From the NCBI GenBank assembly GCA_902776665.1, contig CACYQZ010000002.1:10329-74328 (forward strand): DNA of 64,000 nucleotides, in the 5' to 3' direction. Under the pieces are notes generated by a model. That model had not been told where the DNA came from and ran no database searches. It saw nothing but the letters and a program-made list of their open reading frames with translations. The translations under genes were made by a program, and so were the position numbers. How positions within the stretch are numbered: position 1 is the first letter of the stretch; each line of letters begins with the position of its first letter. Positions 516 through 5,889 of this stretch are shown in pieces. This DNA comes from an uncultured Prevotellaceae bacterium. GTDB taxonomy: Bacteria > Bacteroidota > Bacteroidia > Bacteroidales > Bacteroidaceae.

Positions 516-623
516 CGACTTTTAGATTCCCAAAAGAGAATCTAAACAACATAATCTTTACCTTAAATCTATCAAACTACTAACCTAATGAAAACCTTTA
601 AAACGATGTATTCTCACGAACAC
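483..623 (-). ncRNA. Candidate ~140-nt small RNA (GibS-like architecture)
   Basis: Own TACCTTTG promoter (629-636), U/G-rich unstructured 5' part, hairpin at 521-542 and terminator hairpin at 487-515 followed by a U-rich tail. G-U pairs form only on the minus strand. No credible ORF. Confidence 0.6.
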
Positions 624-628
624 GGGTG

Positions 629-636
629 CAAAGGTA
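629..636 (-). promoter_or_regulatory. -7 promoter element (TACCTTTG) of the candidate sRNA
   Basis: Exact TAnnTTTG followed by CA; TTG-like -33 element 19 nt upstream. Confidence 0.65.
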
Positions 637-759
637 GAGGGTTTTTCGATTGTGACAATGAATCTTGTCGAAATTTTCTCGAAAAGACCGTTTTTATTGA
701 CGCAAATCAATGTTTGTCCTCATTTTTCATCAGGAAAATAGTTTTTTTTCATTTCTGCC

Positions 760-1275
760 CTACTCCAGAATCTTGATGGCGACGGACTTGAGTTGCTGCC
801 ATCCGGCGCGGTCGGTGACGCGAATCATGAAATGATAGTCGCCAGGCGTGGCGTCGGCAGGGATTTTCAGGTCGTTGCGAGCCACGAAGCGTTTCACTTG
901 GTAGGGAATTTCATACGTGAATGTCGCTTTCCACGGGGTTCCCTCGTCGTGGTGGTCGTCGCCATGATCATCGTCGTCGTCACATTCATGGTCGTGGTCG
1001 CCCTCGGTGCTGTGGCTGTGGTGGTCGAAATTGCTGTGGATTTCGAGGGCATAGCCGCCCAGTCCGCCATTGTCGGTAAACACGTAGTTGAAAGCGATAA
1101 CCTCGCCACGATGGTAGGTCTGGCAGTTGATGGGATTGGCGGTGATGCCTTCGTCGGTAATGACGGGCGGTGTCATGTCGCGGAGGTCATCGCCGTTGTT
1201 GTCGCAAGCCGTGAAGGCAATGACGGCTGCACTGATCAGAGCCAGTGTAAGGCTCAAAAATGTCATTTTTTTCAT
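760..1275 (-). CDS. DUF4625-like His/Asp-rich lipoprotein, probable metal-binding partner of the TBDR
   Basis: Lipobox FTAC; internal FDHHSHSTEGDHDHECDDDDDHGDDHHDEG; C-terminal PGDYHFMIRVTD Ig-like strand. Confidence 0.8.
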   Translation of the reverse strand: MKKMTFLSLTLALISAAVIAFTACDNNGDDLRDMTPPVITDEGITANPINCQTYHRGEVIAFNYVFTDNGGLGGYALEIHSNFDHHSHSTEGDHDHECDDDDDHGDDHHDEGTPWKATFTYEIPYQVKRFVARNDLKIPADATPGDYHFMIRVTDRAGWQQLKSVAIKILE

Positions 1276-1319
1276 ATCGTTTTAATTTTAAAATTTTACT
1301 TTTTTATTTTTTCATTTTT

Positions 1320-3410
1320 TCAAAATTCCATTCCAATCATCAGCGACACATTCCGCCCGGGTTCGGGCACGTCGATGAGTCGATAGTAACTGGTGTGGTC
1401 GTAGTAGCGACGATTCAGCAGGTTGTCGGCGTGAAGGGTAAGTTTCAACGTCTTGTTGCGCAACGAAAAGTCTTTTCCTGCCGAGAAATTCAGTGTCCAA
1501 TAGCCTGCCGTGGGCTTTTCGGGCGGCACAATTTCGTTTTGCGCGCCTACGACGTGCGCGTTCAACTTGAAAAATCCCTCACCGTGCCAGTCGTACGAAT
1601 ATTTCACGTCGGCATCGACCGACCAAGGCGTCGAAAATGGCAGTGTAAAGCCTTTTTTCTCGCCCGAGCGTTGTCGTGCATAGAGATATTCGCCCTTCAA
1701 CTCGGTTTCCCAATGACGATTCATCCGCCAACTGGCCTGCGCCTCGACGCCGTAGCGAAGCACTCGTGCCTGGGTGTAGTGGTAGAGTTGCAGTCCCTCG
1801 ACGAAGGTGGGCGTGGGGTTCAGGTAGATGTAGTTCGGGAAATAATTGAGATAGGGATCGACTTGGATGCAGAAGATTTCATTGTCCCAATGGATGCCGA
1901 CATCGACCTGATACGACTCCTCGGGATCGAGTTCGGCATTGCCTCGCTCGTAGCGGAAAATGTGGTAGTTCACACCATTGGCACCGAGTTCTTTCGGGAT
2001 GGGAACGCGGAAACTCTTTCCGACATTGGCCTTCACCACCCAGTAGCCCGTGGCGTAGTTGATGCCTGCCGACCACGTGATGCTGTTGAAATGGCGATGA
2101 AGCCGTGCCGAGCGCTGCAAATAGGCCGAATCGGTGTCGGAAATCGGCGTTTGATACCAATCGTGATAACTCTGAATCTTCGTCTGGGCGTGGTCGTAGC
2201 GCATTCCGGCGTTCAGTTTCAGATGTTCGCAGACGGTAAAACGGTCGAAAGCATAGGCTCCGAGGCTCAGCGTCTCGAAATCGGGAATAATAAAACCCCA
2301 TCCACTGCGCCGGTTGTGCTGATATTCGGCACTCGCACCGACGTTCAGTTCGTGACGCTCGCCGAGTTGCTGGCTCAAACTAAGAATCGCCGTCCACGTG
2401 CTTTTGTCGAATCGTCGTTCTAAAGTGCCGTCGGGCGTAGGCATATAGCCGTGGCTGATGGGTTCGGAATGTTCTTCGCGCAGGTTGCGCTGGTAAGCCA
2501 GATTCGCCTTCGCGGTGGTCTTTTCGGTGTGCCAAACGGTATGACTCGTAACTTTCAGATGGTTCACCCACTGATACGGCAGGTCGATGTCGCGCCGCGA
2601 ACGGTCGTAGTCGATGTCGGAAAGTCGCACCTCCAAACCATGGGCATTGGCGAAAAATCCGCTCTTCGAATAACTGTCGGAAATGCGCACATCGGTGTGG
2701 AAATGGTAGCCGGCATAGCCGAACATCACGCTACCGTCGCGCTCCAGACCGGCAGTGTTGCGCAGTCGCTGGTCTTTCAGACGGATGTAGTACGAATAAT
2801 ATTGTATGCTGTCCGTCGGCACGCGATAGTCGGCATAGTCGATGAAAGTGGCGTTGGCACGGTAGAAAAAGCGACCGTGGCGACCGCCGACCTTCGCCGA
2901 AAGGCCGATTTGCTCGTTGTTCGTGCGACCAAACAGTTGCACGGCACTGCTGAACGGCTCCGTCGGCACGTGGTTGGTGTAAAGATTGAGCACGCCGCCG
3001 ATGGCATCGCTACCGTAAAGCAACGCCGCCGGACCTTTGATGACCTCGGCGCGATCGACGGCAAACTGGTCGATTTCCAGTCCGTGGTCGTCGCCCCACT
3101 GCTGTCCCTCGTGCTTGATACCGTCTTCACTGACAGCCATTCGGTTAAAACCGAGTCCGCGAATCGTGGGCTTCGACTGCCCCGACCCGATGCTCATAGC
3201 CTTCACACCCGGAATGCTTTCGAGCGTCTGCATCAGACTGCCGGCGAAATGTTGTTGAAGGTAGTCGTGGCTAACCTGTACTGACGACTGCGATGAACGC
3301 ATCTGATAGTCGCGTTGCCGCTGTCCCTTCACCGTCACGTTTTGAAGCGTTACGGTGGTGTCGGGCGGACTCACGACCGTCAGCATAGCAGCCAAAAATA
3401 AATTGATCAT
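1320..3410 (-). CDS. TonB-dependent outer-membrane receptor, probably for a metal
   Basis: 696 aa; TonB-box-like LQNVTV; plug motifs PGV..IRGLGFNR and EVIKGPAALLYGSDAIGGVLN; C-terminal PGRNVSLMIGMEF ending in Phe. Confidence 0.92.
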   Translation of the reverse strand: MINLFLAAMLTVVSPPDTTVTLQNVTVKGQRQRDYQMRSSQSSVQVSHDYLQQHFAGSLMQTLESIPGVKAMSIGSGQSKPTIRGLGFNRMAVSEDGIKHEGQQWGDDHGLEIDQFAVDRAEVIKGPAALLYGSDAIGGVLNLYTNHVPTEPFSSAVQLFGRTNNEQIGLSAKVGGRHGRFFYRANATFIDYADYRVPTDSIQYYSYYIRLKDQRLRNTAGLERDGSVMFGYAGYHFHTDVRISDSYSKSGFFANAHGLEVRLSDIDYDRSRRDIDLPYQWVNHLKVTSHTVWHTEKTTAKANLAYQRNLREEHSEPISHGYMPTPDGTLERRFDKSTWTAILSLSQQLGERHELNVGASAEYQHNRRSGWGFIIPDFETLSLGAYAFDRFTVCEHLKLNAGMRYDHAQTKIQSYHDWYQTPISDTDSAYLQRSARLHRHFNSITWSAGINYATGYWVVKANVGKSFRVPIPKELGANGVNYHIFRYERGNAELDPEESYQVDVGIHWDNEIFCIQVDPYLNYFPNYIYLNPTPTFVEGLQLYHYTQARVLRYGVEAQASWRMNRHWETELKGEYLYARQRSGEKKGFTLPFSTPWSVDADVKYSYDWHGEGFFKLNAHVVGAQNEIVPPEKPTAGYWTLNFSAGKDFSLRNKTLKLTLHADNLLNRRYYDHTSYYRLIDVPEPGRNVSLMIGMEF

Positions 3411-3458
3411 ACTGAATGTCTATTTGAAAAAACAATAATGAGGTGGAAAATTGATTTT

Positions 3459-3797
3459 TCAAACGACGGGAGGGGCTCTCGGCACGAGAACGCCGCAAAT
3501 TCGGTGGGTTCGATGGTTGATTTGGATGCTGAAAAGCGGTGAAACTCTTCGAAAACAATGGACGATTGCCACAACGGCAGCCAACAGAATCGGCAGCGAG
3601 AGAAATTCGCAGAGCAGACACGGGTGCATCGGCAAGGTCTGTTGTCCGAAATGTCCGCCACAATGGTGATCGACACAGGCTTCGCAACTGTTTTGCGTGC
3701 CCGTCGGAGTTTCATGAACATGGAGCGACGACAAAAGCAGCATTGGCAGAAACACTGCCAACAGCACCCAAGAGGCTATGCGTCTTTTCGTTTCCAT
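3459..3797 (-). CDS. Cys/His-rich membrane leader protein with C-terminal RAPP motif (DUF2946/CruR-like putative arrest peptide)
   Basis: 112 aa: N-terminal hydrophobic helix, HVH, CEACVDHHCGGH, HPCLLC, second hydrophobic stretch, ends PRAPPVV. Stop is 48 nt upstream of the TBDR ATG. Confidence 0.75.
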   Translation of the reverse strand: METKRRIASWVLLAVFLPMLLLSSLHVHETPTGTQNSCEACVDHHCGGHFGQQTLPMHPCLLCEFLSLPILLAAVVAIVHCFRRVSPLFSIQINHRTHRICGVLVPRAPPVV

Positions 3798-3820
3798 GTT
3801 CTTTTTAAATTTTTTCGGCG

Positions 3821-3828
3821 CAAAATTA
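3821..3828 (-). promoter_or_regulatory. -7 element (TAATTTTG) for the leader-TBDR-lipoprotein operon
   Basis: TAnnTTTG 24 nt upstream of the leader ATG; divergent from the mnmG promoter. Confidence 0.6.
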
Positions 3829-3891
3829 CAGATATTTGCGTGAAGTTCAAAATAAAATGCAAATATTATTACGTTTTTTATTCTTTTTTAG

Positions 3892-3899
3892 TACCTTTG
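3892..3899 (+). promoter_or_regulatory. -7 element (TACCTTTG) for mnmG
   Basis: Exact TAnnTTTG upstream of the ATG at 3931. Confidence 0.65.
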
Positions 3900-3930
3900 C
3901 AAACGTAAAAACGATTTTGACGGGAACACG

Positions 3931-5889
3931 ATGCTATTCAACTACGACGTCATCATCATCGGAGGCGGTCACGCGGGATGCGAGGCGGCCACCGCTGCGG
4001 CACGCATGGGCGCGAAAACTTGTCTGATTACGATGGACATGAACAAAATTGCGCAAATGTCGTGCAATCCGGCTGTGGGTGGAATCGCTAAAGGCCAGAT
4101 TGTCAGGGAGTTAGATGCACTCGGCGGCGAAATGGGTCGCGTCACCGATGCCACGACTATCCAGTTTCGGATGCTGAATCGGGGCAAGGGGCCGGCAGTG
4201 TGGAGTCCACGAGCGCAGTGCGACCGCGAAAAATTCATCGGAAAATGGCGTGAAACGCTCGATGGAATCGATGGTTTGGACATTTGGCAAGACCAAGTTG
4301 AAGAATTGCTCGTGGAACCTTTTGGTCACGAGAATGGCGACGGTTGTCGCGGCACAGCAGTGGGTGTTCGGACGGTTTGGGGCGTGGAATTTCGCGCGAA
4401 AAGCATTGTTGTCACCGCTGGAACCTTCCTCAACGGCCTGCTACACGTGGGTCGGCGGATGGTGCCAGGCGGTCGGATGGCCGAGCCTGCCGTCACGCGC
4501 TTCACCGAGAGCATCACGCGCTGGGGCATCCGCTCCGACCGAATGAAAACGGGTACGCCCGTGCGCATCGACCGCCGTAGCGTCGATTTCAGCCTACTCG
4601 AAGAACAACCCGGCGAGAATGATTTCCACCAGTTTTCCTATATGAAAAAAAACGCGGTGGAATCGGCAGGAATCGACACTCGCACACTGCCGCAGTTGTC
4701 GTGTTGGCTGTTGAACACCAATGCCCACGTCCACGAAATTCTGCGCACGGGACTCGACGATTCACCTTTATATAATGGGCAGATTCAGAGCATCGGACCG
4801 CGCTATTGTCCGTCGATTGAAACGAAACTCGTCACCTTCCCCGACCGCGACCAGCATCCGCTCTTCCTCGAACCCGAGGGAATTGACACGAATGAGATGT
4901 ATCTAAACGGTTTTTCATCGAGTATGCCGATTGACATTCAACTCGAAGCGTTGCGACAGATTCCGGCACTTCGCGATGTGAAAATCTATCGTCCGGGCTA
5001 TGCCATCGAATACGATTTTTTCGACCCGACACAGCTCTATCACTCGATGGAATCGAAGGTTTTGAGCGGACTTTTTTTTGCTGGACAAGTCAATGGAACG
5101 ACAGGCTACGAAGAGGCCGCCGGACAGGGTTTGATGGCAGGTGTGAACGCCGCCTTGCACAGCCAATCCACCACCCACACTCCACACTCCACACTCCACA
5201 CTTCACAATTCACCCTCGCTCGCGACGAAGCCTACATCGGCGTTCTCATCGACGATTTGGTGACGAAGGGCGTTGATGAACCCTACCGAATGTTCACCTC
5301 GCGTGCCGAATATCGAATTCTTTTGCGTCAAGACGATGCCGACGCCCGATTGACTGAGCGTTCCTACGAACTCGGACTGGCGTTGCGTGAACGATACGAT
5401 TGGTGGTTGGAAAAGAAAGAAAACATCGAAAAAATCGTGCATTTTTGCGAAAATACACCCGTAAAACCTCGCGACATCAACAGTGCGCTAGAAAATCTTG
5501 GCACTACCCCACTCCAATTTGGCTGCAAAATCGCCGATCTCATCGCGCGTCCACAACTATCTATCGCGAAACTCGCTGAGGTGATTCCCGAACTGAAAAC
5601 CGCGATACTTTCGCCGAAAAATCGACGCGAAGAAATCGCCGAAGCTGCTGAAATCAAAATCAAATACAAAGGTTATATCGAGCGCGAAAAACTCGTGGCA
5701 GAAAAGATGCACCGATTGGAAAACATCCGCATCAAAGACCGATTTAAGTATGCCGAACTCCACGAAATTTCCACCGAGGCACGACAAAAACTCGAACGAA
5801 TCAACCCTGAGACGCTGGCACAAGCGAGTCGCATTCCAGGCGTGTCGCCGTCGGACATCAACGTGCTACTGGTGCTTCTGGGACGTTAG
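3931..5889 (+). CDS. mnmG: tRNA uridine-5-carboxymethylaminomethyl modification enzyme MnmG/GidA
   Basis: VIIIGGGHAGCEAA FAD motif; MSCNPAVGGIAKG; GPRYCPSIE; FAGQVNGTTGYEEAAGQG. Confidence 0.98.
   Translation: MLFNYDVIIIGGGHAGCEAATAAARMGAKTCLITMDMNKIAQMSCNPAVGGIAKGQIVRELDALGGEMGRVTDATTIQFRMLNRGKGPAVWSPRAQCDREKFIGKWRETLDGIDGLDIWQDQVEELLVEPFGHENGDGCRGTAVGVRTVWGVEFRAKSIVVTAGTFLNGLLHVGRRMVPGGRMAEPAVTRFTESITRWGIRSDRMKTGTPVRIDRRSVDFSLLEEQPGENDFHQFSYMKKNAVESAGIDTRTLPQLSCWLLNTNAHVHEILRTGLDDSPLYNGQIQSIGPRYCPSIETKLVTFPDRDQHPLFLEPEGIDTNEMYLNGFSSSMPIDIQLEALRQIPALRDVKIYRPGYAIEYDFFDPTQLYHSMESKVLSGLFFAGQVNGTTGYEEAAGQGLMAGVNAALHSQSTTHTPHSTLHTSQFTLARDEAYIGVLIDDLVTKGVDEPYRMFTSRAEYRILLRQDDADARLTERSYELGLALRERYDWWLEKKENIEKIVHFCENTPVKPRDINSALENLGTTPLQFGCKIADLIARPQLSIAKLAEVIPELKTAILSPKNRREEIAEAAEIKIKYKGYIEREKLVAEKMHRLENIRIKDRFKYAELHEISTEARQKLERINPETLAQASRIPGVSPSDINVLLVLLGR
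5164..5212 (+). repeat. Heptamer tandem repeat (CACTCCA-type x7) inside mnmG
   Basis: caatcca ccaccca cactcca cactcca cactcca cacttca caattca; encodes QSTTHTPHSTLHTSQF. Confidence 0.9.

Follow-up and report, generated by a model that had tools for sequence, protein, structure and literature searches.

The window analyzed here, a 64,000-nt stretch, comes from a rumen Prevotella with a genome of 2.34 Mb, and carries on its minus strand a small leader ORF, a TonB-dependent receptor (TBDR) gene and a lipoprotein gene. The first-pass annotation had placed one promoter before a 112-aa ORF, followed after 48 nt by a TBDR and then by a His/Asp-rich lipoprotein. A -7 box is present at 3828 to 3821, both downstream genes were confirmed, and the features it had given for the ORF (TM helix, HVH, HPCLLC, a second hydrophobic stretch and RAPPVV-stop, with the RAPP codons at 3479-3468) are correct to the base. 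The features of the locus are as follows.

3821 to 3828, minus strand: Bacteroidetes-type -7 promoter box TAATTTTG, read from the sequence
3459 to 3797, minus strand: leader gene, 112 aa, candidate regulatory arrest peptide, with the C-terminus RAPPVV-stop
3723 to 3776, minus strand: first transmembrane segment (TM1) or signal anchor, residues 8-25, ASWVLLAVFLPMLLLSSL (AF2 helix 2-24)
3609 to 3722, minus strand: predicted periplasmic sensor loop, residues 26-63, about 35 residues, rich in His and Cys
3552 to 3608, minus strand: second hydrophobic segment, residues 64-82, starting at the CxxC (AF2 helix 59-100)
3480 to 3551, minus strand: hypervariable spacer, residues 83-106, constant in length, which would serve as a "ruler" from sensor to stall site
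3479 to 3468, minus strand: RAPP codons AGA GCC CCT CCC, read from the sequence
3473 to 3471 and 3470 to 3468, minus strand: predicted stall codons, for Pro109 (P site) and Pro110 (A site), with the sites assigned by analogy from the toeprint of CruR (PMC12992588)
3461 to 3459, minus strand: leader stop codon TGA
3418 to 3467, minus strand: switch hairpin, with 5' arm 3467-3450, loop 3449-3437 and 3' arm 3436-3418
1320 to 3410, minus strand: ZnuD-like TBDR, 696 aa, with Plug and barrel domains
760 to 1275, minus strand: DUF4625 (PF15418; 2.5e-36) lipoprotein, 171 aa, with the His/Asp-rich insert HHSHSTEGDHDHECDDDDDHGDDHHDEG

The leader begins METKRR, and its K4-R5-R6 precede 18 hydrophobic residues (8-25); by the positive-inside rule, TM1 would be oriented N-in. 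The TM1 block is the best-conserved part of the leader family alignment. The loop ligands are H26xH28, C38xxC41, H44, H49 and C60xxC63, lying in the segments H26-V-H28, C38EACVDHHCGGH49 and H58PCLLC63. Their columns are invariant or at least 90% conserved, and H28, C41, H49, C60 and C63 are fully invariant in the family. From the C-terminal end of the second hydrophobic segment to A-site Pro110 there are 28 residues. The AF2 model of the leader is poor (overall pLDDT 59, with a disordered loop of pLDDT <50), and no metal site is visible in it. The leader has no match in Pfam or NCBIfam and is publicly annotated as a hypothetical protein. With the transcription start site inferred, the predicted 5'UTR is about 16-19 nt long and A-rich; equivalent TAnnTTTG boxes lie 5-25 nt 5' of the leader ATG in most homologous loci, where no conserved Zur-type operator was seen. 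An R[AG]PP motif within 14 aa of the C-terminus occurs in only 3 of 7,828 six-frame ORFs of the 2.34-Mb genome, the leader included. The other two look non-coding, one of them facing a 203-aa frame on the opposite strand, and both are outside the family-library scan; the leader looks like the sole credible ORF in this genome with a C-terminal R[AG]PP. Together with the conservation of the motif in homologues, described below, this speaks against a chance occurrence.

The TBDR starts with an ATG at 3410, 48 nt after the leader stop codon. Its best NCBIfam model is ZnuD (NF038289, 8.6e-45), although the score of 153.6 bits does not reach the equivalog cut-off of 950 bits. Its nearest solved relative is likewise ZnuD, from Neisseria meningitidis (PDB 4rdr, 3.4e-19; next structure, 4.7e-10). 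The TBDR also resembles haem receptors (TIGR01785, 1.2e-42), with ShuA and PhuR among the structure matches. The lipoprotein gene begins 44 nt after the TBDR stop codon; its product has the N-terminus ...IAFTAC and matches DUF4625 with 125.3 bits against a 27-bit cut-off. In Bacteroides thetaiotaomicron, the transporter BT1420 shows cofitness with the DUF4625 protein BT1419, its predicted cap (bioRxiv 10.1101/2023.03.17.533168). By analogy with this transporter-lid pair, whose lid family is common to both loci, the DUF4625 surface lipoprotein in the window is probably the "lid" of the TBDR. One or two such small proteins come after most receptors of the window's type, and a sister receptor class has 7-12 His within 30 aa.

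The leader belongs to a family of 639 cluster representatives (E<=1e-3), with 33 close homologues, which is present in 55 of the 251 genomes of the host's GTDB family. The first-pass annotation had named the conservation of RAPP at the C-terminus and a synteny survey of RAPP-ending ORFs 5' of TBDRs as checks, and both agree with its reading. R[A/G]PP stands at the C-terminus in 83 of 84 leaders (80 genomic loci), and R[A/G/S]PP lies within 14 residues of it in 171 of 180 family proteins (130 RAPP, 38 RGPP and 3 RSPP, with tails of 2-14 residues). A TBDR of about 700 aa lies 3' of the leader in 79 of 82 loci, mostly across gaps of 33-75 nt, and the order leader-then-TBDR also holds in more distant Bacteroidales families. 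The second CxxC lies 43 residues from the Arg in 157 of the 171 motif-bearing proteins and 42-44 in all 171, and despite this rigid length the residues between CxxC and RAPP are hypervariable. The N-terminal two-thirds of the leader shows good conservation as protein sequence. All 84 leaders contain C[VLAF][LI]C, the two CxxC motifs lie 18-19 residues from each other throughout the family, and the 19 residues after the second CxxC have a family-wide mean Kyte-Doolittle value of 1.68. The family, for which Pfam and NCBIfam at present contain no model, is annotated as hypothetical, often with a false N-terminal extension.

The kinship with DUF2946 leaders put forward at first pass holds at the level of profiles, but not as a Pfam match of the window leader itself. 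The PF11162 HMM (gathering score 23.7 bits) has no match to the window leader at E<=10 and none in the host genome, while 14 of 34 family members touch it, with a best E of 1.7e-3. When the family alignment was compared by hhalign with an alignment of Bacteroidota DUF2946-like RAPP/RGPP proteins (11 proteins at or near the PF11162 cut-off), the probability was 97% (E 1.2e-10) over 106 colinear columns spanning the TM segment, HxH, CxxC and RAPP. The leader family thus appears to be linked, remotely, to DUF2946-like proteins. The closest characterized relative is CruR (Bp2923)/BfrG of Bordetella pertussis (DUF2946/PF11162), also a small exported or anchored leader heading a TBDR operon. In the CruR family, CXXC and RAPP are 45 residues apart, +/- 1-2, in >2000 proteins; both motifs are required, and copper relieves the arrest (Roy et al. 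2022, PMC9426467). In vitro, the CruR arrest has been demonstrated with the two prolines of Pro-Pro occupying the P and A sites (PMC12992588). The window leader shares with CruR an invariant CxxC at a fixed distance from a C-terminal RAPP (45 +/- 2 in CruR, 43 +/- 1 here), a tail of only 2-3 residues beyond the motif and the expected logic, in which metal would relieve the arrest and shut off uptake. The agreement in spacing is partial: it is equally rigid here but, at 43 (42-44), two residues below CruR's 45, and that in other Bacteroidota DUF2946-like proteins is 43, 45 or 47. Unlike CruR, the leader has a second hydrophobic (TM-like) segment after the CxxC and a larger ligand set (HxH, a second CxxC and two further His). 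The intergenic regions also differ: CruR has a 162-nt GC-rich spacer with Rho-dependent termination, whereas the spacer here is 48 nt with a hairpin predicted to mask the start site. Finally, the phylum is Bacteroidota and the receptor is ZnuD-like with a His-rich lid, and for this last reason the metal is probably not copper.

The hairpin has a stem of 17-18 bp that starts at the first nucleotide past the Pro-Pro codons. Its 5' arm is made of the Val-Val codons, the stop codon and an A-run, and its 3' arm stops 7 nt short of the TBDR ATG. Pairing in the window between the 10 nt past the Pro-Pro codons and the 30 nt that precede the TBDR ATG has a pair mass of 9.66, against 0.8 in shuffled controls, none of whose 100 shuffles reaches this value; the z-score of the hairpin is -2.6. 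The hairpin is found in 22 of 23 loci with the window's receptor type, with 30 distinct 5' arms in 30 loci. Across loci whose tails run from 1 to 6 codons, the stem base lies -1.3 +/- 2.2 nt from the end of the Pro-Pro codons (in the window, at position 0), compared with -9.9 +/- 4.2 nt when measured from the stop codon; it follows the Pro-Pro codons rather than the stop. From the end of the 3' arm to the receptor ATG, the median distance is 7 nt. As in translational unmasking of the CutF/SecM/MifM type, the predicted structure covers the initiation region of the downstream gene and shares nucleotides with the footprint that a stalled ribosome would have. When the nucleotides covered by the ribosome are forced to be unpaired, the unpaired probability of -18 to +3 rises from 0.37 to 0.53 in the window, a modest gain, and from 0.45 to 0.61 in the mean of the RAPP class. 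No U-tract follows the hairpin, it has no match in Rfam, and no intrinsic terminator was found in the leader-TBDR region. Since the hairpin is absent from 26 of 27 RGPP loci and from 9 RAPP loci with other receptor types, this RNA mechanism is not universal in the leader family.

Based on these findings, we propose that the 112-aa ORF is a regulatory arrest peptide which gates TBDR translation by periplasmic metal, rather than a conventional protein, and we hold this with reasonable confidence. The ribosome would stall when Pro109 occupies the P site and Pro110 the A site. The ribosomal mRNA channel reaches to about +15, and the stalled ribosome would cover GUC-GUU-UGA, the basal 9 nt of the hairpin 5' arm, and so free their complement CAAAUAGAC, which lies at -16 to -8 relative to the receptor start. 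Bacteroidota initiate largely on unstructured A/U-rich leaders, not on Shine-Dalgarno sites, and a start region freed in this way could turn on translation of the receptor (and the lid). At the stall, the second CxxC would be 46 residues from the peptidyl-transferase center; a chain must be roughly this long to pass through the exit tunnel and SecYEG, so the CxxC would just reach the periplasmic face. Metal, when present, may be chelated by both CxxC pairs together with the His residues, and the resulting folding, the insertion of the second hydrophobic segment, or both, could pull on the nascent chain and release the force-sensitive arrest. The ribosome would then terminate, the hairpin would re-form and uptake would be off; when metal is scarce, the stall would persist and uptake would stay on.

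Both the direction of this regulation and the identity of the metal are what we infer. We lean tentatively toward zinc as the likeliest metal, at slightly less than even confidence, because ZnuD is the nearest solved relative of the receptor, because the lid is His/Asp-rich and sister receptors have 7-12 His per 30 aa, because of the ligand pattern CxxC-x18/19-CxxC, and because the gene after one related Bacteroidota leader encodes a product that opens with a GSGKT-type motif and is, by eye alone, COG0523-like. Copper, nickel or cobalt is possible. The leader could be viewed as a periplasmic "zinc finger on a nascent chain": the ruler would set the CxxC at the outer mouth of SecYEG at RAP|P, zinc closure of CxxC-x18-CxxC/His together with segment insertion would release the arrest, and zinc uptake across the outer membrane of Prevotella would be set purely at translation initiation by the stall-anchored hairpin. 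In this complete form, the idea is speculative and somewhat doubtful.

The locus might instead work by CruR-type transcription attenuation, with the stalled ribosome blocking Rho or another termination factor on a G-poor spacer and the hairpin being secondary. CruR, the closest characterized relative, does use Rho-dependent attenuation (PMC9426467), G makes up only 10-13% of the family's intergenic regions, and many members are without any hairpin. However, the spacer is only 48 nt against 162 nt in CruR, and the hairpin takes up 41 of the 48 nt, so that a rut site could hardly fit. With its stem base fixed to the stall codons and its 3' arm next to the ATG, the hairpin has the geometry expected of start-site masking, and an intrinsic terminator is absent; we think attenuation unlikely. 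It is also conceivable that the leader, in the manner of classical monitoring substrates that sense force, monitors a signal other than metal, namely periplasmic redox or disulfide formation, haem, or Sec/YidC insertion capacity, or that the hairpin merely couples translation without any signal. The known RAPP arrest peptides ApdA and ApdP monitor protein localization, the CutF model invokes disulfide formation, and the resemblance of the receptor to TIGR01785, ShuA and PhuR would suit haem. Because ribosomes translating through to the stop codon open the hairpin transiently, plain translational coupling explains part of the architecture. Against these readings, the gene downstream encodes neither a Sec nor a YidC component, the leader lacks the CxxCH haem motif, and disulfide sensing is unlikely because the rumen is anaerobic, while the invariant His/Cys in CxxC...CxxC and HxH and the His-rich lids and receptors point to a transition metal. 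A non-metal signal, or none, strikes us as quite improbable.

The ORF could also encode a stable inner-membrane protein with two TM segments and its own function, for instance as a metal chaperone or uptake partner, with R[AG]PP as a structural or interaction motif and the hairpin as an mRNA stability element. The good conservation of its N-terminal two-thirds and its public annotation as a hypothetical protein would fit, but a folded domain would not typically have a hypervariable stretch whose length is strictly fixed and which closes with a known arrest tetrapeptide 1-9 residues from the stop codon. Moreover, the RNA stem tracks the Pro-Pro codons, and the family is related to a leader of experimentally demonstrated function. 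We give this reading very little weight, and return to the metal-gated arrest peptide.

Such an arrest peptide would have parallels in other systems. CutF/CutO was assigned to Caulobacter at first pass; this was wrong, as CutF is from Rhodobacter capsulatus and its stall motif is described as PPP. CutF is a co-translationally exported sensor with a Cys motif proposed to read periplasmic metal, as we propose here. It stalls at PPP in an EF-P-sensitive manner, and the stalled ribosome melts a stem-loop shielding the RBS of the next gene (Ozturk et al., PMC9973294; bioRxiv 10.1101/2025.02.05.636593). The logic of CutF is opposite, in that copper induces stalling and so switches on a detoxifying oxidase, and it masks a Shine-Dalgarno site, whereas Bacteroidota are largely without SD-dependent initiation. 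The intergenic layout in the window (48 nt plus hairpin) is closer to CutF and SecM than to CruR. ApdA, ApdP and SecM (RAPP/RAGP, localization monitors) resemble the leader in their C-terminal arrest tetrapeptide, N-terminal localization signal and expected release by force, but their downstream genes are Sec/YidC components and they lack conserved metal ligands. The general class of RAPP/RGPP uORFs 5' of TBDR genes is already known: it was defined bioinformatically throughout Gram-negative bacteria by Fujiwara, Chiba and colleagues (EMBO J 2025, PMC12992588), and its definition (a small protein with a localization signal, a C-terminal RAPP/RGPP and a downstream TBDR) fits the leader exactly. 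That survey characterized Streptomyces examples and CruR only, and contains no Bacteroidota member, family definition, spacing rule or RNA switch. Overall, our reading is supported, and the view of the first-pass annotation that this is a Bacteroidota counterpart of the metal-sensing RAPP leaders gains support, at the level of sequence, from conservation, synteny, the invariant His/Cys, the remote DUF2946 kinship and the hairpin.

To our knowledge, only two metal-sensing arrest peptides have been studied, CruR and CutF, both of them proteobacterial. They disagree on the place of metal sensing and on how the stall is read out. The leader family, which on its sequences is best read as a system of the CruR/CutF kind, offers hundreds of natural variants in Bacteroidales, with a rigid 43-residue ruler and a richer ligand set, and holds at least two kinds of RNA read-out, with or without a stall-anchored hairpin. 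With this combination of ruler, ligands and varied read-outs, the questions of where the pulling force comes from and how the stall is read out become directly testable. Bacteroidota are dominant bacteria of the gut and rumen. If our reading is true, this would be the first post-transcriptional metal switch described in the phylum, and the uncharacterized TonB transporters with DUF4625 lids would gain a regulator and a probable substrate class. The "zinc finger on a nascent chain," if true, would give a phylum without Shine-Dalgarno initiation a metal switch that suits it.

Three co-oriented genes, read from the sequence, occupy 760-3828 on the minus strand: a 112-aa leader (the candidate regulatory arrest peptide), a ZnuD-like TonB-dependent receptor (TBDR) and a DUF4625 lipoprotein, the probable lid of the receptor. 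The receptor (696 aa; Plug and barrel domains in the domain scan) begins exactly 48 nt from the leader at 3410, the next ATG that opens a long frame, and its start is fixed because an in-frame TAG lies four codons upstream. The lid (171 aa) follows 44 nt past the receptor, matches Pfam DUF4625 at 2.5e-36 and carries HHSHSTEGDHDHECDDDDDHGDDHHDEG. The gene divergent from the leader is mnmG-like. Folding of 3520..3380 predicts an RNA hairpin (z-score -2.6) that runs from just past the leader's Pro-Pro codons to 7 nt short of the receptor ATG. The features of the leader and its junction with the receptor are as follows.

3828..3821, minus strand: Bacteroidetes -7 box TAATTTTG, upstream of the leader
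3459..3797, minus strand: leader ORF, 112 aa, protein METKRRIASWVLLAVFLPMLLLSSLHVHETPTGTQNSCEACVDHHCGGHFGQQTLPMHPCLLCEFLSLPILLAAVVAIVHCFRRVSPLFSIQINHRTHRICGVLVPRAPPVV
3479..3468, minus strand: RAPP codons AGA GCC CCT CCC, read from the sequence
3461..3459, minus strand: leader stop codon, read from the sequence
3467..3450, minus strand: hairpin 5' arm GUCGUUUGAAAAAUCAAU (two tail codons, stop, A-run)
3436..3418, minus strand: hairpin 3' arm AUUGUUUUUUCAAAUAGAC, ending 7 nt upstream of the receptor ATG

The leader has no Pfam or NCBIfam match, and an NCBIfam scan of all family members gave no curated family; a possible Bacteroidota family, 'HYC_CC_PP', was rejected as its family, since nothing of that kind matched in that scan. 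Its homologues numbered 33 in a word-indexed search and 639 in a profile search of 1.84 billion representatives, 485 of them at E<=1e-10. Scanning one genome per species gave 80 leader loci, nearly all in rumen or gut Prevotella/Prevotellaceae MAGs, with the isolates Xylanibacter ruminicola KHT3, Prevotella sp. khp7 and tc2-28, and X. brevis ATCC 19188 among them; the locus closest to the window, at 96% identity, belongs to a goat-abomasum Prevotella MAG. The family occurs, usually as one copy, in 55 of 251 genomes and 15 of 35 genera of the window's GTDB family, and in 6 of 301 genomes sampled evenly from the order. The 2.34-Mb assembly has a single copy, the only credible ORF there with R[AG]PP near its C-terminus. 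In this one genome's proteome, RAPP was observed twice against 5 expected and RGPP not at all against 4.6, with control PP tetrapeptides equally depleted; RAPP-like sequences are under-represented in many phyla, Bacteroidota among them (PMC12992588).

The first-pass annotation had proposed a metal-sensing arrest leader and called for motif conservation and synteny to be surveyed, and both surveys bear it out. R[AGS]PP lies near the C-terminus in 171 of 180 homologues, and the nine exceptions look truncated or frameshifted. The 84 leaders read at the genomic loci end in RAPP (50), RGPP (33) or RASP (1), followed by 1-9 residues (mode 2). Invariant in the alignment are L13, V15, F16, P18 and L20 in the first transmembrane segment (TM1), H28, C41, G48, H49, C60, L62, C63 and P109, and the residues conserved at 90% or more include H26, C38, H44, R107 and P110. 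The two CxxC motifs are separated by 18-19 residues, and the 19 residues past the second are strongly hydrophobic (mean Kyte-Doolittle 1.68). From the second CxxC to the Arg there are 43 residues in 157 of the motif-bearing proteins and 42-44 in all of them, and the ~25 residues preceding the Arg show no conservation whatever. On alignment grounds, such a hypervariable segment of invariant length that ends in a known arrest tetrapeptide marks a ruler rather than a folded domain. AlphaFold2, run with a 34-sequence alignment, gave a mean pLDDT of 59 with two helices only (2-24 and 59-100) and a disordered loop; therefore, no metal site can be read from the model. From KRR at the N-terminus and RR behind the second hydrophobic segment, we infer that the loop 26-63 is periplasmic. 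A haem attachment motif is ruled out because His follows neither CxxC.

The characterised metal-sensing arrest leaders are two, CruR of Bordetella pertussis (DUF2946/PF11162) and CutF of Rhodobacter capsulatus (PMC9426467, PMC9973294), and the first-pass annotation had linked our leader to DUF2946. This link stands at the profile-profile level, where the leader family and a DUF2946-like alignment match at 97% probability (E 1.2e-10), colinear over TM1, HxH, CxxC and RAPP, but the window's leader itself has no PF11162 match. Scanned singly, 14 of 34 aligned family members touch PF11162 (best E 1.7e-3), and a PF11162 search of 301 Bacteroidota genomes gave marginal matches in 22, 4 of which exceed the cut-off. 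Of the 24 matches listed in that search, 12 loci were fetched and 11 ORFs examined: all 11 end in R[AG]PP plus 2-5 residues and precede TBDRs, lipoproteins or, in one case, a product opening with a GSGKT-type motif. From the PF11162 matches and the profile comparison, we therefore place the leader family within the DUF2946 superfamily, as a diverged lineage that Pfam cannot see. CXXC-RAPP spacing in the CruR family is 45 +/- 1-2 in more than 2000 proteins, and altering it by five residues strongly reduces copper control (PMC9426467); compared with CruR, our family obeys a parallel spacing rule, shifted to 43. The supplementary tables of Roy et al. (PMC9426467) contain no Bacteroidota or Prevotella entry.

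In other Bacteroidota classes, leaders at the DUF2946 threshold that end in RAPP or RGPP also have varied neighbours (L numbers denote homologous loci in other Bacteroidota genomes): ~290-aa lipoproteins with HFEA.G at L085, L090 and L096, TBDRs at L093 and L094, and at L088, 272 nt past the leader, a gene whose product starts with the GSGKT-type motif and is COG0523-like by eye only.

A ~700-aa TBDR lies downstream of the leader in 79 of 82 loci, a pattern seen with three receptor sub-types and also in remote Bacteroidales families. Where the receptor is of the window's type (N-terminus MI..LLA...TVTGQ), one or two DUF4625-like proteins of ~140-170 aa come next; DUF4625 has been proposed as the lid of non-SusC transporters, with BT1419 cofit with BT1420 (bioRxiv 10.1101/2023.03.17.533168). 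The RGPP-associated receptor type is itself His-rich (7-12 His per 30-residue window); at L017, L019, L022, L029, L030, L077 and L083 a signal peptide precedes the His-rich N-terminus and DSTDVFFRHL. In distant Bacteroidales families (L100, L101, L097, L098), weaker leader relatives (E 1e-8 to 1e-15) ending in RAPP precede TBDRs; two of these loci have DUF4625-like lids with an NFDHH(T/G)H motif downstream, and at L097, L098 and L101 a hairpin starts 2-4 nt past the Pro-Pro codons and extends to the TBDR start.

RNAalifold on a MAFFT alignment of 20 junctions returned 0 pairs, because the loops range between 3 and 95 nt in length and the arms fail to align. We therefore measured, for each locus, the base-pair probability mass between the 10 nt past the Pro-Pro codons and the 30 nt leading up to the ATG against dinucleotide shuffles. 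In the window this mass is 9.66 of a possible 10 versus 0.8 when shuffled, a value reached by 0 of 100 shuffles, and over 68 non-redundant junctions the measure is bimodal. Of the 23 loci whose receptor is of the window's type, 22 have the hairpin, as do 4 of 5 with a CarboxypepD_reg-type receptor; it is absent from 26 of the 27 RGPP loci whose receptor is of the His-rich type, and from 9 further RAPP loci. The 30 listed hairpin loci have 30 different 5' arms, mostly with minimum-free-energy stems of 12-24 bp, the exceptions being a stem of 10 bp (L048) and two loci with artefactual long-range pairings (L005, L024). Although the tails range over 1-6 codons, the stem base keeps its position relative to the end of the Pro-Pro codons (-1.3 +/- 2.2 nt) better than relative to the stop (-9.9 +/- 4.2 nt). 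The median distance between the end of the 3' arm and the ATG is 7 nt, and at four loci the arm takes in the ATG itself.

Other arrangements occur across the family. The RGPP loci L017, L019, L022, L029, L030, L077 and L083 have, in place of a stall-linked hairpin, a spacer that is unstructured, poor in G and marked by a conserved UUACAUACAUU element; in hairpin-less RGPP loci the stall may be read out differently, for instance by Rho-type attenuation of the CruR kind. At L053:5310-5370 and L054, the RGPP codons (GGGGGCCUCC) pair with downstream GGAGGCUUUUUU, a pairing that resembles an intrinsic terminator that an RGPP-stalled ribosome would keep from forming. In a third architecture (L062, L065, L066, L067, L073, L079), the Pro-Pro codons (CCUCCUGU) pair, as the 5' strand of a short hairpin, with an ACAGGAG(AG) further on, ~30 nt short of the TBDR start; the stall codons themselves thus double as an RNA-switch element. 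At L006:4968-5783, in a Prevotella MAG from water deer reticulum, two tandem leader genes 78 nt apart (124 aa ending RAPPFFSL, then 120 aa ending RAPPVCSYSP) precede one TBDR, and the second leader alone has the hairpin to the TBDR start.

Conventional control elements were also sought. No intrinsic terminator was found in the leader-receptor spacer, and the hairpin and spacer RNA has no U-tract, terminator-like site or Rfam family. An Rfam scan of 600-4100 gave no riboswitch, its sole return being a chance snoRNA match (E 0.77), and a search for Zur/Fur-type operators upstream of leaders found nothing common to the loci except the -7 box. In the window, an 8-bp inverted repeat (minus strand 3832-3866; ATATTTGC at 3866-3859 and GCAAATAT at 3839-3832, 19 nt between) sits directly upstream of this box, in the stretch that separates the divergent promoters of the leader and mnmG; it recurs in the 96%-identical locus L004, is absent from more distant loci and could be an operator or chance. 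Where 160 nt upstream were inspected, the -7 box (TAnnTTTG) ends just 5-9 nt before the leader ATG at L008, L022, L027, L041, L048, L051, L062, L070 and L073, which may make the leader mRNA leaderless. Gene callers often place the ORF start too far upstream, and the false N-terminus '...FAAV...' that results is the translated promoter TTTGCAGCCGTG.

A ribosome covers ~12-15 nt 3' of the first P-site base, with toeprints at +15 to +17. If it stalled with CCU (3473-3471) in the P site, it would cover 3467-3459, the nine basal nt of the 5' arm, and this would free CAAAUAGAC at positions -16 to -8 relative to the receptor start. At the predicted stall, 46 residues separate C63 from the P-site residue, a span that in an extended chain would roughly match the exit tunnel and SecYEG channel combined. 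The hydrophobic segment ends at F82, 28 residues short of the A-site Pro. This latter distance is close to one at which the translocon's pull on hydrophobic segments reportedly peaks, and zinc-dependent folding of a small zinc-finger domain is reported to release a SecM arrest. When metal is scarce, the stall would persist and hold the hairpin open, and the receptor and lid would be made; when metal is present, the loop and CxxC motifs could close on it, and/or the hydrophobic segment could partition into the membrane. The resulting force would release the arrest, the ribosome would terminate, the hairpin would re-form and uptake would be switched off. This proposed cycle joins the logic of CruR to a CutF/SecM-type read-out (PMC9426467; PMC9973294). 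The feature is real and strongly conserved, and we judge the interpretation in the first-pass annotation correct; all mechanistic steps past sequence and comparative structure are those that we infer.

As the sensed metal, zinc is favoured, since no other solved relative of the receptor comes within nine orders of magnitude of ZnuD, His and Asp are abundant in the lids and receptors, the leader's ligand pattern is C4/His and related Bacteroidota leaders have zinc-type neighbours; none of these reasons is decisive. Those neighbours include the COG0523-like gene, an eye reading that hints at zinc.

RAPP/RGPP uORFs are over-represented before TBDR genes, 'universally' in Gram-negative bacteria (EMBO J 2025, PMC12992588), and CruR has been shown to arrest in vitro, its two Pro codons occupying the P and A sites (PMC12992588). 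That survey describes no Bacteroidota family, no Bacteroidota spacing rule and no RNA switch, and our literature search found no characterised Bacteroidota case of a metal-sensing arrest leader, as the earlier annotation had also held. Judged from its sequence, the leader is a Pfam-invisible DUF2946 relative with two hydrophobic segments and multiple putative ligands. It is combined with a predicted stall-anchored hairpin that would mask the start site, and precedes a ZnuD-like receptor and its probable DUF4625 lid.
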